A stretch of 64,000 nucleotides of DNA from Puniceicoccales bacterium (GTDB taxonomy: Bacteria > Verrucomicrobiota > Verrucomicrobiia > Opitutales > UBA9783): positions 21,680 through 85,679 of the forward strand of contig JAITJL010000001.1 in assembly GCA_031278975.1 (NCBI GenBank), in the 5' to 3' direction. The translations under genes were made by a program, and so were the position numbers. Shown here in pieces: positions 17,065 to 57,357 of the stretch. The notes below the pieces were generated by a model, which was not told the origin of the DNA, ran no database searches, and saw only the letters and a program-made list of their open reading frames with translations. How positions within the stretch are numbered: position 1 is the stretch's first letter; every line of letters starts with the position of its first letter.

Positions 17065-18027
17065 TTAATAGTTGGATACGTAGGCATTGCCCAGGGCATC
17101 TTCGAAATATAATTTTTTTTCCACGGGATCTATATCGCTCCAAATAACATTTAGGTGTGCATTGACAACATCGCCTATGTGAAAAACTTTTGAATTAATG
17201 ATCAGACAGCTGTCAAAACCTTTGTAGGCAATCCCTTGAATGTGTTGTTGGTAGAGCCAATCACGTATGGAAACGTTGTTACCCATACGAATATGGGGAG
17301 TCTCCTTTTCTTGATTTTTAAATAACGCATCCATGCGCTTCGAGAATTCTTGTCCCGTTTGCGATTCCACAAAATTCTCTTCCTGAGTATCAAAGCCGTC
17401 TCGTATCCATTCTTCATTTAAATGAGCAAACAGGTTATTTGAATCCAGAGGAAGATTATTGAGGTTGAGTTTGGGTTCTTGAGATTGTTTTTCGGATGAA
17501 TCCGTAGGCAATGCATGTTCGTGTTCTTCGTTGACTGCAATCGTTTTTTCAGCTGCGATTACTTTTTCAGTGGGTGGATTGAGTATTTCTCCAGGCGTAT
17601 TTTGTACATTGGAAGATTCGGTTGCCACATAAGCACCGACTTCACGATCTTCAAATATGGTCTCTAGAATTTCATTGGATGCGGTATCCGATAGGAATAT
17701 TTGATAATCGGAAGCGTTCGCGACATATGGGTTGTTCGAGATACCCAAATTACGCTTTTCACGGAGGTAGAAAAAAGTCAGGCCAAGACATGTCATTGAA
17801 AACATGCCTAAAAACATCCATGAAACATTTTTTCGATTGAGCATACTGCGTGCTTCCACAAAAGATGTCGCATTGGAATCATGGAGAGTATCCATCGATT
17901 CCAATTGCGGTAAAACTTCTGGGCCGACAAAAACTTTAGAGGCTTTTTTAGTTGTTTGAGATTTTTTTACGGAATTCTTGATTGTATTCATCGCAGAAGA
18001 TAAGTTCGTTTTGTTGGATTCCCACAA
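17065..18027 (-). CDS. Bitopic membrane protein with a GspB-like C-terminal domain (second copy)
   Basis: Single TM helix (VSWMFLGMFSMTCLGLTFFYL) and an acidic linker. The C-terminus IQGIAYKGFDSCLIINSKVFHIGDVVNAHLNVIWSDIDPVEKKLYFEDALGNAY resembles the GspB/T2SSB C-domain. The track start overlaps the upstream gene by 80 nt; internal ATGs at 17991 or 17895 are alternatives. Confidence 0.4.
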   Translation of the reverse strand: MWESNKTNLSSAMNTIKNSVKKSQTTKKASKVFVGPEVLPQLESMDTLHDSNATSFVEARSMLNRKNVSWMFLGMFSMTCLGLTFFYLREKRNLGISNNPYVANASDYQIFLSDTASNEILETIFEDREVGAYVATESSNVQNTPGEILNPPTEKVIAAEKTIAVNEEHEHALPTDSSEKQSQEPKLNLNNLPLDSNNLFAHLNEEWIRDGFDTQEENFVESQTGQEFSKRMDALFKNQEKETPHIRMGNNVSIRDWLYQQHIQGIAYKGFDSCLIINSKVFHIGDVVNAHLNVIWSDIDPVEKKLYFEDALGNAYVSNY

Positions 18028-19096
18028 ATTTTAGCTTGGGTGACTGTGAGACAAAAGTGTGCGGGTAATATACGTGTCCATTGAGGTTAACTTTGGATGC
18101 ATCCCCATCAATACGTACACTATAAATTTTAATCTGGTGTAACAACGCATAAATGGAATCCAGATGATCTTTGCTGCCCATTTTCTCTTTGGCATGTGGA
18201 TTCGTTTTTACTAGAGGCAGGATAGAAGTGGGACTCGGAGCAACACCTACATCGGATTGGACACCTTGGACCGAATGTAAATGCGTGTTGAGATATCCAT
18301 TAAGGAGTTGTTGTTGGGCTAATACGATAATTTTTGATGTCCCTTCAAATATAGATTCCGTATAATTTAAAAAGCTATGCCACATGGATGTTAACGTTTC
18401 CATTGGATACGCATTCAATGAAATCCAAGAACCTTGGCGGTAAAATTTTTCTAGTGAATTCCGATAGGCCACATACCGTGTGAAAGTTTTTAATGCATGC
18501 AATGTGGTTGATAATCTTTGGGTCACAAGGGGTTGTACTGATTGACAATGGGTGAAGAACTTCAAAAGCTTTGTTTTTATTTGCTCTGTTTTATACAAAT
18601 TCCATGGAGATGGGTCTTTAAGAATTTCTATTGGATGAGGCGATGTTCCTACAGTTTTGGTAAACAGGTTTTTAGACGATGGAATCGCTAGAGGCGATTG
18701 GGCTATTTCAATGACTCTCGAAAATCTACGAGGATTTGGAATTGAGAGGTTATTTGTATGGCTCTTGGTGCGTACTTTGCGAGAAACGTCGGGAGTTGTT
18801 GCAGGTAGTGGTTGAATTTGTGAGTGCGTAGAGTTTAATTCGATGGGTCGTGTGGTAATAGAAATTGTGCGTTTGGAGTCTTTTATGTTTGTAGCTGGTT
18901 TTGGAAAGTAATGATTGCATAGGAAATAGCCACTTAAGACGATGCATACCATGAACAGGATAAAACAAAAGAAGATACCAAGGCGTTTTCGAGACGAATA
19001 TTTAAGAGGTATTGTTCGATAAACGTAAGGATGATGTCTATCGAATAAGAATTGTTCGTATTGTGCATCCTGTAAATTCTTAAATAACCTACTCAT
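17948..19096 (-). CDS. GspB/ExeB-like bitopic membrane protein
   Basis: The N-terminus MSRLFKNLQDAQ resembles the GspB MSxLLxALxxA start. Has a single TM helix (LGIFFCFILFMVCIVLSGYFL). The C-terminus IKIYSVRIDGDASKVNLNGHVYYPHTFVSQSPKLKFVGIQQNELIFCDEYNQEF is GspB-C-like. It lies 4 nt downstream of the exeA-like gene. Confidence 0.45.
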   Translation of the reverse strand: MSRLFKNLQDAQYEQFLFDRHHPYVYRTIPLKYSSRKRLGIFFCFILFMVCIVLSGYFLCNHYFPKPATNIKDSKRTISITTRPIELNSTHSQIQPLPATTPDVSRKVRTKSHTNNLSIPNPRRFSRVIEIAQSPLAIPSSKNLFTKTVGTSPHPIEILKDPSPWNLYKTEQIKTKLLKFFTHCQSVQPLVTQRLSTTLHALKTFTRYVAYRNSLEKFYRQGSWISLNAYPMETLTSMWHSFLNYTESIFEGTSKIIVLAQQQLLNGYLNTHLHSVQGVQSDVGVAPSPTSILPLVKTNPHAKEKMGSKDHLDSIYALLHQIKIYSVRIDGDASKVNLNGHVYYPHTFVSQSPKLKFVGIQQNELIFCDEYNQEFRKKISNN

Positions 19097-54494: not shown

Positions 54495-55334
54495 CTATTT
54501 TTCAGCTTTCCGTATGCTTTCTGTCTTCCGTGGAAATTCTGGAAAATTGTAATACACATCTCTATCTTTGATGAGGTACGTATCCCTGATGTTGTAGATA
54601 TGTTCTTTGCAATCATCCATCGATTGAAATTTATTCCACACGATTTTGAAGGCATTTGCATTTGTTATGTACCATGATAATCCTGCTTGCATGGTACTAC
54701 AATCAGCCCAACCGAGCGTATTTTCAAAGTCGAACCCAGTCCCACTTTTCCTAAAAGGTACATAGGTAAACCGATCTCCTTTATACAAATGATTCGGCAA
54801 AAAACAACGGATATTTCCAGCAGGAACCGTATTGTCCGAACCATTCGGCGGAAACTCGTTAAAAATCAAATAATAGTTGCGACACGCTTTTACCACGCAT
54901 TCAATATTGTATACGCATTCGTTGAGGCGAAAATCTTCCGTGGCTTTTTTAAACCCCGGAACGGCGATGGTGGCCAGAATCGCCACAATGCACAGCGTTA
55001 CAACGATTTCGATGAGCGTAAAACCGTTACGGTTTACGGATGTGGATGAATACTTCGGTGCTCGGCCAAGTCCAGACGTCCGGAGAGGAACCGACTCAGG
55101 ATATCTTGCTGCTTGACAAGGTCGGAGAAACCTGTTTTGGCTTAGGGAGGAATGCTCCAATGCTCGGCTAGATATCGGCGCCCGGAGGGAAATCGATGTT
55201 CCAGAACACCTCGCCGCTTGACCTGGAACCGACTTAGGACGCTCTGTCGCAGTTAAACAGTCAGATGCCTTGGCGTCTCGATGAAAACCGTTTCGACTTG
55301 GGGATGGACATTTTAACTCCTGGACTGGCCTCAA
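54495..55334 (-). CDS. Prepilin-type N-terminal cleavage/methylation-domain protein (pseudopilin/pilin-like). The 5' end is anomalous and it may be a pseudogene.
   Basis: The class III signal core G|FTLIEIVVTLCIVAILATIAVP has its Phe(+1) codon at 55020-55022, so the mature part is 54495..55022. The 104 in-frame upstream codons contain no ATG or GTG. Only TTG at 55334 and TTG at 55160 are available, implying 104- or 46-aa leaders. Confidence 0.55.
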   Translation of the reverse strand: MRPVQELKCPSPSRNGFHRDAKASDCLTATERPKSVPGQAARCSGTSISLRAPISSRALEHSSLSQNRFLRPCQAARYPESVPLRTSGLGRAPKYSSTSVNRNGFTLIEIVVTLCIVAILATIAVPGFKKATEDFRLNECVYNIECVVKACRNYYLIFNEFPPNGSDNTVPAGNIRCFLPNHLYKGDRFTYVPFRKSGTGFDFENTLGWADCSTMQAGLSWYITNANAFKIVWNKFQSMDDCKEHIYNIRDTYLIKDRDVYYNFPEFPRKTESIRKAEK

Positions 55335-55651
55335 TCTTCGATGAGGGTCTCAATCCTCGACGAAATTCTAATGCCTGGATTGGTCCTAACCTTCGACCAG
55401 GTTCTGAACTCCGGTTCAGTTTCAATACCTGGCTTCGCCTAAATCTTCGATGGGATCCTGACCTTTGATTGGGTTCCAACCCTTGGCTCAGTCCCAACCG
55501 TTGAACTGGCTTTAGATCCGAGATCAGTCCAAATCTTCGGTAGGGTTCCACTCCCCGGTTCGGTCTCAACCCTCGACGAAATTCTAATTCCCGGCTCGTT
55601 CCTAATTCCGAAGCTGGTCCCAATCTTTGACCGGAGTCCTCTAACTTCGGA
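55310..55651. repeat. Phased degenerate tandem array, 19 units of 18 bp (consensus about GGTYCYAAYCYTCGRNNN), G+C-rich
   Basis: Units read in register: attttaactcctggactg, gcctcaatcttcgatgag, ggtctcaatcctcgacga, aattctaatgcctggatt, ggtcctaaccttcgacca, ggttctgaactccggttc, ... ggtcccaatctttgaccg, gagtcctctaacttcgga. The 36-mers at 55346-55381 and 55562-55597 are 31/36 identical and sit exactly 12 units apart. Confidence 0.8.
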
Positions 55652-57357
55652 ATGCTATTGGCAACTAAGCGCTTAGCTGTCTTGGGTCTTCACTACTAAA
55701 TTAGTATAGCCTTTCCTTACTACCTCTGTCAAGGGCTTTTTGGGGGATTTCATAAAGTTGTTCGGAGGGTTTTCATGGATTTTGGAAACAAATCTTCTGT
55801 TATTCGGAGGTTTTTAGGTCGTTCAATGCAACGGCCGGAGCATGTTCATCTTACGGCAAAACCGAGTCGCGTGTTAAATAACTAAAACCCTCGGATGCAG
55901 TGTGGATGCACCGCTGCGCTCATTACAGAGGAACACTAGCAAACGGTAAAATCATAAGAAAATACCTTCGAAAATTCCTCAGTTATGACGAAAATGATGC
56001 AGTTGCGGCAAAACTATGTTCAAAAACCCAAGTTGGTGGTGGTAAAGCTTATGCGGTTCTCCGGGATATATGCGTTTATATCTAACTTCCCGGAGAATTT
56101 CCAAAAGCTTATATAAGACTATCTCATCCAAATGAATTAAGGACCTATTTACACTTAAAACATGCATTTATAGGTTAAATTTTACGGTGCATTGCCTATC
56201 TATGGCATTATAACACCTTGCAAAAGTTATTTCAAAGCCTCGTTACGCTCCATCCACATGCCACCCTACGTCGGATATTTCGCCGGGCATAGACGTATTG
56301 GCGTAAAATTCCATTGGGTTCAATGAAGGGTAGGACTTAGTTCCATCAGAAAGATCAAATAGGGTCAATGGTGCAAACACCGAATCTCATGTCGAACAAC
56401 GATCCATCGGACGCCTCGTGAATATAACCTCTGTACTCGCCGAAGTTACAAGCATTATAGCAGGCATGCAAGCCGTGAGATAGCATCTTCAAAAGCCTCG
56501 ACTGCAAGCTAAGATGACGAAGACAATGTTATCTCGGCAAAAGCCGGATTCATAGACTTAGATTGCAGTGATAAACCCGATTACAAATAAGTTGCCAAAC
56601 GAAAACGAAAGTTTTCCATTCTACGGATGCATTCAATGAACCTTCATCTATACAAACCAACTTTACCAAATTTTTAAAGGCGGTATGCCGCTTTGTTTCA
56701 TGTTACATTTCCTACGCTTGTATGTACTCATTGCATCGTTCCAAGAGATATCCAAAACCATCGTCCGGATATCAACAGACGCTCGATTGCCTTTCGACGG
56801 CGTTTATTAAAGAGCAACAGCGCGTATAGTACCCCAATTTCGAGTATGCGTTATATTCCTTTATCCACGACCCGTTTCCCTACTCCTATCCAAGAATCTA
56901 TTGAGAAACAATAGACGCAAATCGTTGTGTAATCAGATAATACGCTCGCACGTGCCTCGGTTATCCTTGGTTATAACGCGCATCTGTTTGTAGCAGTGCA
57001 TACACTTGCTTCAACGAGATACTTTCACAGCTAAAGTATGTTTTTTCTCTATGGATACTACCTCAAGAAAAGTACACAGAACAAGACGGAAGCCCCTCTA
57101 TTTAAGACAAGTATACCCCTAATAAGAATTAAAATAGTCTACTTTATTTTTGGAAGATTCCTTCAACAGGTTACATAAAACTTAAGTTTTAAAGCTAAAG
57201 TTTTATAAACATTTTGGGGATCACTTTACTTAAAAATAAAAGCTTTTGGATTTATATCAGGATTCTATTGTGCGTTATTAGAAGATGTATTGAGTTGGTA
57301 ATATTACAGCAAGAGAAAGTATTGCAAAACATCTATGATGCGTACTTTGGTTTTTGG

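Follow-up and report, generated by a model that had tools for sequence, protein, structure and literature searches.

A probably frameshifted pilin-like gene in a Puniceicoccales contig and the candidate repeat-built leaders of its relatives

A contig of a Puniceicoccales bacterium was analyzed over a stretch of 64,000 nucleotides (hereafter the window, to which the coordinates refer), which carries on its minus strand a pilin-like open reading frame (ORF) of 279 amino acids (aa) (54495..55334, with a TTG start in the ORF listing). We consider it moderately probable that this ORF is the frameshifted downstream part of a Puniceicoccales-specific pilin-like gene, the intact family form of which would have a repeat-built leader of about 70 to more than 400 residues. 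All the conclusions on the family were drawn from sequence analysis of metagenome assemblies. The missing start of the window pilin appears to be explained by a frameshift, and the family feature appears to be the unusual one; the window copy, probably a broken member, is less interesting than the family feature that it exposes.

The pilin-like gene of the window and its lesions

The prepilin core reported in the first-pass annotation was recovered at residues 101-125 of the 279-aa ORF by two profile searches, both above their curated cut-offs: Pfam N_methyl (PF07963) matched residues 101-124 at 25.3 bits (cut-off 21.2), and TIGR02532 matched the ORF at 28.2 bits (cut-off 16.3). The class III signature is present, with Gly at -1, Phe at +1, Glu at +5 and then a hydrophobic helix of about 20 residues, and G, F, T, L and E were invariant in the family alignment of 18 sequences. 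Upstream of the Gly, the pilin frame contains 108 codons before the first stop, the TGA at 55352-55350; the earlier count of 104 holds when made from the first TTG. Reading of the frame agreed with the first-pass annotation in that these codons include no ATG or GTG, and TTG only at 55334 and 55160 (positions -103 and -45). The ORF thus lacks the short leader with an initiator near the Gly that characterizes pilin-type genes, and leaders of 46 or 104 aa from the internal TTG codons are possible as fallback starts, TTG 55334 being the start in the NCBI annotation of the gene. The G+C content of the leader part was 53% overall, against 40.7% for the whole window, with 31/60 rather than 32/60 on recounting 55081-55140.

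A three-way nucleotide alignment of the window and its syntenic orthologs L161 and L162 (gene order pilin-grpE-dnaJ(-recA)) was used to read the lesions, and two single-base insertions were found, both unique to the window when compared with L161 and L162. The first is an extra base in a 19-nt unit of the repeat array, as a result of which the array ORF is shifted by +1 relative to the pilin ORF; the TGA that closes the pilin frame is located within this same unit. The second is an extra A near the 3' end of the gene, without which the window ORF would end at the TGA 54487-54485. In-silico removal of both bases yielded a 378-aa ORF starting at TTG 55623 and ending in ENRYY, composed of a 200-aa leader, which is basic (40 K+R vs 14 D+E), and a 178-aa mature pilin. 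We infer that no canonical start is found near the Gly because these two window-only insertions break the gene, the frame of which is disrupted relative to intact orthologs, as in a pseudogene. The first-pass suggestion that the 5' end had been lost to insertion or recombination fails in that the promoter, the TTG and the array are all present, and stands to the extent that a single extra base disconnects them from the pilin. The features of the window are the following:

55703..55732, minus strand: sigma-70-type promoter TTGACA-18-TATACT, matching at 11 of 12 positions
55677..55693, minus strand: 5'-proximal GTG (55693-55691) with the imperfect heptamers AAGACCC AAGACAG; the GTG frame stops after six codons
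55624..55674, minus strand: conserved 5' box AAGCGCTTAGTTGCCAAT...GAGGACTCCGGTCAAAGA, containing a possible hairpin whose loop includes GAGGA, directly 5' of the TTG
55621..55623, minus strand: conserved TTG, opening a 120-aa ORF (55261..55623)
55280..55623, minus strand: array of about 19 degenerate 18-nt units encoding hexapeptides x-L-x-P-x-R/Q, the body of the 120-aa ORF
55335..55353, minus strand: extra base in the 19-nt unit GACCCTCATCG (GATCC-AATC in L161, AACCG-AATCG in L162)
55284..55295, minus strand: upstream junction copy cgaaacggtttt (RNGF), the end of leader module 1
55249..55278, minus strand: HRD box AGACGCCAAGGCATCTGACTGTTTAACTGC, a degenerate copy of the 5' box at the start of the second tandem module, in frame
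55086..55187, minus strand: in-frame tandem duplication of 102 nt inside the spacer, containing TTG 55160, present in the window only
54960..55034, minus strand: class III signal core NRNG/FTLIEIVVTLCIVAILATIAV, with the Gly codon at 55025-55023 and cleavage predicted between 55023 and 55022
54498..55022, minus strand: mature pilin-like domain, modeled with a long helix at the N-terminus, followed by a beta-sheet head
54498..54502, minus strand: A5 run in place of the A4 of the orthologs, giving the C-terminus ...KAEK (stop) instead of ...AENRYY (stop)

The window promoter lies in a CCTTGACAGAGGTAG...TAnAAT block conserved with the relatives, and the same promoter was seen at L161, L163a, L163b, L164, L165 and L167. 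Transcription in the window is predicted to begin at 55694-55697, immediately 5' of the GTG. TTG 55623 is most likely the start of the ancestral long ORF; the NCBI annotation of relatives starts at the equivalent TTG (MGADRE..., MGAGRG...). The 18-bp repeat array described by the first-pass annotation is real, though degenerate: the autocorrelation of the array showed peaks at 18/19, 36, 54/55 and 72 nt, and manual phasing placed about 19 units between 55641 and 55280. Tandem Repeats Finder reported no repeat, and Rfam gave no match, in the array region of the window.

The near-copy of the junction noted earlier is present, with its coordinates shifted by one (55295-55284); the junction proper, cgtaacggtttt, is at 55031-55020, about 264 bp downstream of the cgaaacggtttt copy. 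The repeated junction is interpreted as the boundary of two tandem leader modules, because the HRD box and the 5' end of the transcript are homologous sequences; each module spans from the transcript 5' box to RNGF. This homology is clear only by way of L163b and L161, the direct comparison of the 5' box with the HRD box of the window being not significant: the L163b 5' end scored 25 against the window HRD box (0/500 shuffles as high) and 46 against the second HRD box of L161, whose first junction precedes a second, complete module (score 113). In the second module of the window the array has largely been lost. The 102-nt duplication scored 26 (0/500 shuffles as high) and is missing from L161 and L162.

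The mature part was modeled with AlphaFold2 (predicted local distance difference test, pLDDT, 83.5), giving a helix that spans residues 7-58, followed by a beta-sheet head, so that the predicted fold is the "lollipop" of pilins. The top Foldseek match in the PDB was 9iuf_A (probability 0.99, E = 7e-3, TM-score 0.46), and the next ones were PilE, Clostridioides difficile PilA1 and CofA, all of them type IV pilins. The NCBIfam equivalogs scored far under their cut-offs, matching the N-terminal motif only (gspH, 21.3 bits vs 80; gspG, 26.5 vs 88.85), and "GspH family" is therefore only a label. The ratio of non-synonymous to synonymous substitution rates (dN/dS) of the mature domain was 0.22-0.38, with 0.24-0.38 for the window against its orthologs, a sign of purifying selection, indicating that any inactivation is recent, or that the gene is still in use. 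The window copy is most likely a pseudogene of recent origin; at best, the internal TTG 55334 would allow its weak expression.

Alternatively, both insertions could be sequencing or assembly errors, or minority alleles, the true gene being intact and encoding the 378-aa precursor with its 200-aa leader. The sites are of an error-prone kind (an A5 homopolymer and a repeat array), the mature domain is still under purifying selection, and the ORF becomes complete again, with ENRYY at its end, once only two bases are removed. However, a pair of errors would rarely fall within 1.1 kb, and the large housekeeping ORFs of the window (PNPase, LeuRS, GyrA, GyrB, BamA and DnaB; 470-870 aa) are intact, indicating a low indel error rate. 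In addition, L162 has a lesion of its own, a 5-nt duplication, and L165 a frame break between array and pilin, so real decay occurs and is recurrent in this family. We therefore regard errors or minority alleles as decidedly unlikely. Programmed frameshifting was considered separately and rejected, given that the window would need a +1 shift and L165 a -1 shift, that the sites differ, and that the orthologs need none.

As a separate observation, ENRYY stands directly before the stop codon in nearly every family member, and may be a sorting or assembly signal.

Open frames upstream of the pilin in related loci

The close homologs were all proteins of Puniceicoccales (Verrucomicrobiota) from metagenome bins, with isolate names (Ncb351, Cd354) that resemble, as we take it, those of termite-gut metagenome-assembled genomes (MAGs). 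Many of them aligned over more than 90% of the 279-aa query, its upstream part included, and the leader is therefore common to the homologs. Only 24 proteins with E <= 1e-10 were found among 1.84 billion representative proteins, indicating a small family. Motif scans of genome and metagenome contigs recovered mostly generic GFTLIE pilins, with L001 and L002 as the only true relatives, and when a 395-aa leader was searched against proteins, the query's own gene and P0002 were among the matches listed.

Open codons upstream of GFTLIE were counted back to the nearest in-frame stop or to the contig end. Ten loci had between 92 and at least 399 of them in the pilin frame, a range that also covers the 11 related loci taken together, so that the first-pass option of an unusual long leader was right at the level of the family. 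The counts for the relatives were as follows:

L167: 92 open codons
L163b: 115 open codons
L163a: 129 open codons
L162: at least 133 open codons, to the contig end
L165: 139 open codons
L164: 184 open codons
L161: 244 open codons
L001: at least 321 open codons, to the contig end
L166: at least 399 open codons, to the contig end

The open stretches of the ten loci sum to 1864 codons, stop-free by construction, while the other five frames of the same DNA contain 46-119 stops, which makes open runs at every locus very unlikely to have arisen by chance. NCBI gene calls on the contigs of relatives were of 316, 381, 539 and 561 aa. The loci share a common anatomy: a promoter CCTTGACA-17/18-TAnAAT; then ...TGTGAAGACC, followed by a simple repeat and a conserved box; and then the TTG, the hexapeptide array, K-x-P-S-V-x-R-N-G-F and TLIE. 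The TTG was at the conserved position in 7/9 checkable loci. The leader of L166, like the repaired one of the window, is basic (80 K+R vs 39 D+E), and strongly basic leaders fit the positive-inside rule described for prepilin leaders (PMC10191384).

The unit-anchor spacings that are not multiples of 18 were multiples of three (24, 30, 60, 78, 84, 102, 201, 264 and 414), the only exceptions being mutually cancelling pairs and the spacings of the window (19) and L165 (269). A single stop codon was seen in 71 phased units, against 9.4 predicted from position-wise base frequencies, and the entropy of the non-anchor slots of these units was 1.29, 1.47 and 1.67 bits for codon positions 1, 2 and 3, respectively. 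The proposed frame had the best codon-usage score of the three in 7/7 stretches, including the mature domain as a positive control. Taken together, the multiple-of-three spacings, the avoidance of stops and the third-position variability suggest that the array is translated.

Several observations weigh against a translated leader that is cleaved as a prepilin. The spacer shows no amino-acid constraint, the window-L162 differences being distributed 12/14/15 by codon position, and its dN/dS was about 0.6 in all three frames (window vs L162, 80% identical). The mature domain had a codon-usage score of +0.18, whereas the leader scores were negative or close to zero, and the leaders have 50-53% G+C in a genome of 41% G+C. 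The conserved TTG is replaced by TGG in L162 and L001. Some paralogs have ordinary short leaders (e.g. MRALGRGGFTLIE), and a long leader is therefore not essential to the family. Array-pilin frame breaks were found in two examined loci, the window and L165, and are thus tolerated at least briefly. A G-x-G-D-x-K motif search of the six-frame translation of the 64-kb window found no prepilin peptidase. We read the combined evidence as a frame that is held open while its sequence is almost free, as would fit a disordered leader that is discarded.

Some of these observations would also be expected if the array and the 5' box were an untranslated regulatory leader of RNA or DNA (a protein-binding repeat RNA or a variable 5'-UTR, untranslated region), with translation of the pilin starting at a non-canonical codon or at one of the internal TTG codons (55334 and 55160), and with repeat composition producing the long open frame as a by-product. 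The near-neutral spacer without codon-position bias, the frame breaks in the window and L165, and the NCBI start at TTG 55334 agree with such a leader, as do the 5' repeat units of 7 and 8 nt, which are not multiples of three, the mildly better than shuffled RNA fold of 55270-55700 (z = -2.4) and the abundance of GGA (16 occurrences vs 8.8 +/- 2.4 expected). It is nevertheless rather unlikely, since the non-18 spacings are multiples of three and stops are avoided specifically in one frame, which is also open through the non-repeat boxes at every locus, and up to 1.2 kb in phase with the pilin would be left unexplained. Neither an Rfam match nor the A(N)GGA motif of the CsrA type was found, and the covariation of the hairpin was not above that of controls.

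Two specific devices were tried and rejected: a CsrA sponge formed by the GGA-rich array, in view of the absent motif and the clear coding signs, and a hairpin hiding the ribosome-binding site before the TTG, for which pairs were found in 87.5% of cells and the covariation was matched by 186/500 shuffles.

Under the favored explanation of a frameshifted gene from a long-leader family, the frame of intact relatives would start just 3' of the conserved sigma-70-type promoter, with the conserved TTG about 75 nt into the transcript as the likely start, and in some loci the GTG at the extreme 5' end, followed by a simple repeat of 7-8 nt, would also be in frame. It would then cross the hexapeptide array, and often one or more degenerate tandem copies of the leader module, up to G/FTLIE. 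The basic extension would stay in the cytoplasm, the hydrophobic helix would insert in the membrane with its N-terminus inside, and a prepilin peptidase would cut after the Gly, the sequence of the leader mattering little as long as the frame stays open. In the window, the insertion in 55353-55335 would have split the array ORF (TTG 55623) from the pilin ORF, and that in the A run (54502-54498) would have cost NRYY.

An extra conserved leader module that is not a repeat, ...FFGAVRCIRPGVAHTPPFSGK.(L/V)QEQ.K.PS...NGF, was observed in the pilin frame at L164:3001-3174, L163:4446-4568 and L165:2932-3105, and is not present in the window.

Simple repeats after the 5' start

In the relatives, the 5'-proximal start is followed by a tract of (AAGACCTC)n, with n = 1, 2, 10, 12 or 14, or by at least four copies of AAGACCC. 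The long tracts, together with that of a more distant relative (L168), are listed below:

L164:2757-2840: (AAGACCTC) x10, perfect, directly 3' of the 5'-proximal start
L167:3001-3115: (AAGACCTC) x14, perfect, directly 3' of the 5'-proximal start
L169:23-121: (AAGACCTC) x12, perfect, directly 3' of the 5'-proximal start
L001:3-95: (AAGACCC), at least x4, perfect, directly 3' of the 5'-proximal start
L168:319-425: (CCGCAAT), about x15, perfect, directly 3' of the 5'-proximal start, in the more distant relative

Whether the 5' GTG or ATG is in the pilin frame depends on the number of repeat copies. The GTG is in the pilin frame in L167 (14 octamers) and L169 (12), and one unit out in L164 (10); with one or two copies (window, L161, L163a and L163b) it is not in that frame and starts an ORF of only 7-10 codons. 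L168 has the classic layout of a contingency locus, with a promoter, an ATG and about 15 copies of CCGCAAT in frame with GFTLIE. Several perfect repeats of a unit not divisible by three, as in contingency genes, were thus found in L164, L169, L167 and L168, and not in the window, where the two heptamers appear to be the remnant of the simple-repeat tract of the relatives. Phase variation is plausible in the pilin family, judging from these tracts; the vestigial heptamer tract of the window cannot support it. No copy of the octamer tract was found in viral contigs. A third repeat variant, (ACCGAGAC)n, was observed in P0220.

The first-pass annotation had also raised the possibility that expression depends on rearrangement, which is unsupported for the window copy, its 5' repeat being down to two imperfect heptamers. 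In this form, the copy would be kept off and expressed through a DNA change, namely slippage of the repeat, recombination at the RNGF junctions, or use as a pilS-like silent donor. The perfect (AAGACCTC)10-14 tracts directly after the 5' GTG of relatives, the ATG and in-frame repeats of L168, and the tandemly duplicated leader modules ending at the same RNGF junction are what such a mechanism would draw on. In the window, however, the tract is too short to slip, neither frameshift is located in it, and TTG 55623 would still be out of frame after a deletion between the RNGF copies; moreover, the promoter and the N-terminal coding region are kept, unlike in pilS cassettes, and the window has a single such gene. 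We consider a switched-off copy of this kind highly improbable.

For a clade of Puniceicoccales, a broader proposal is put forward tentatively, as somewhat short of probable: leaders of 100 to more than 400 residues, composed of fast-evolving hexapeptide repeats and of leader modules duplicated in tandem, would be translated and then cut off at G/F, or kept there as a cytoplasmic domain, and expression would be tuned or switched by the 7-8-nt repeats located between the 5' GTG and the second TTG.

Three further regions were recorded. The 1.6 kb between the pilin promoter and prs (55760-57357) contains no ORF longer than 73 aa, and searches with Pfam and Rfam and for tRNA were negative; the proximal 300 bp are conserved in L161:1-350, a strong promoter-like TTGAAA-17-TATAAT is located at 56235-56207 on the minus strand, and the region could be a decayed gene or a non-coding element. 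At 17065-19096 (minus strand) of the window, two ORFs of 320 and 382 aa on the same strand overlap by 80 nt, neither with a Pfam match, and could be one frameshifted gene or two genes. At L166:2244-4451, the pilin adjoins a 735-aa ATPase (T2SSE) of the type II secretion system (T2SS) or type IV pilus type with N-terminal GAF domains, a neighbor that may point to regulation of the assembly machinery of this lineage.

Annotation, significance and known systems

The window gene (P0001 / P0219), the protein of which in the source MAG is MDR2396306.1, is annotated by NCBI as 279 aa from TTG 55334, and by JGI, from a GTG located in the hydrophobic helix, as a "hypothetical protein" of 163 aa. No contig was retrieved by an exact look-up of the JGI protein P0001. 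For the relatives, gene calls of 250-255 aa in one pipeline correspond to 539-561 aa in another, up to 300 residues apart, and pilin inventories of such MAGs are therefore unreliable. If true, long repeat leaders would mean that class III signal peptides can be an order of magnitude larger than is now accepted, and would represent a new class of these peptides as well as a new arrangement for pilin phase variation. Three questions would become testable: how the signal recognition particle/Sec pathway and the prepilin peptidase handle a basic, disordered N-terminus of 200-400 residues; whether the released leader has a role in the cytoplasm; and what causes the fast turnover of arrays and simple repeats in a gut-associated lineage.

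Prepilin leaders usually have 5-30 residues, and those of type IVb (T4b) prepilins and of Streptococcus sanguinis about 15-30. The latter two have been termed "much longer" or "very long" (PMC10191384). The family described here resembles type IV pilins and T2SS pseudopilins (PF07963/TIGR02532) in its Gly at -1, Phe at +1, Glu at +5, helix, beta-sheet head and structural matches, and differs from them in an in-frame extension of about 70 to more than 400 residues, which is repetitive and has an apparent TTG or GTG start. No description of a giant repeat-built pilin leader was found in the literature that could be searched.

The opa genes of Neisseria, with CTCTT repeats in the leader-coding region, are contingency loci. 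The relatives are alike in having perfect 7-nt or 8-nt repeats after the 5' start, the copy number of which sets the pilin frame; unlike opa-type loci, the tract of the window is decayed and a second conserved TTG lies downstream of the tract, so that the effect of the repeat on expression may be one of modulation and not of on-off switching.

In Streptococcus gallolyticus, the pil1 locus undergoes leader-peptide phase variation with attenuation, and its pilus, which is of the sortase type, is controlled via a transcription terminator (PMC3894217). The likeness to pil1 is that in most pilin loci the GTG begins a short upstream ORF (7-10 codons) terminating within the conserved box, just 5' of the possible hairpin. 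It is a likeness by analogy only; no terminator was found, and the hairpin is unsupported.

No second pilin copy was found in the window. The pilS cassettes of Neisseria, which lack a promoter and the conserved N-terminal coding region, act as donors for gene conversion, and the window gene is comparable to them as a pilin coding sequence without a usable start of its own. In contrast to pilS, however, it has a promoter, the 5' box, the N-terminal helix and a complete leader module, and is disabled by point indels only.

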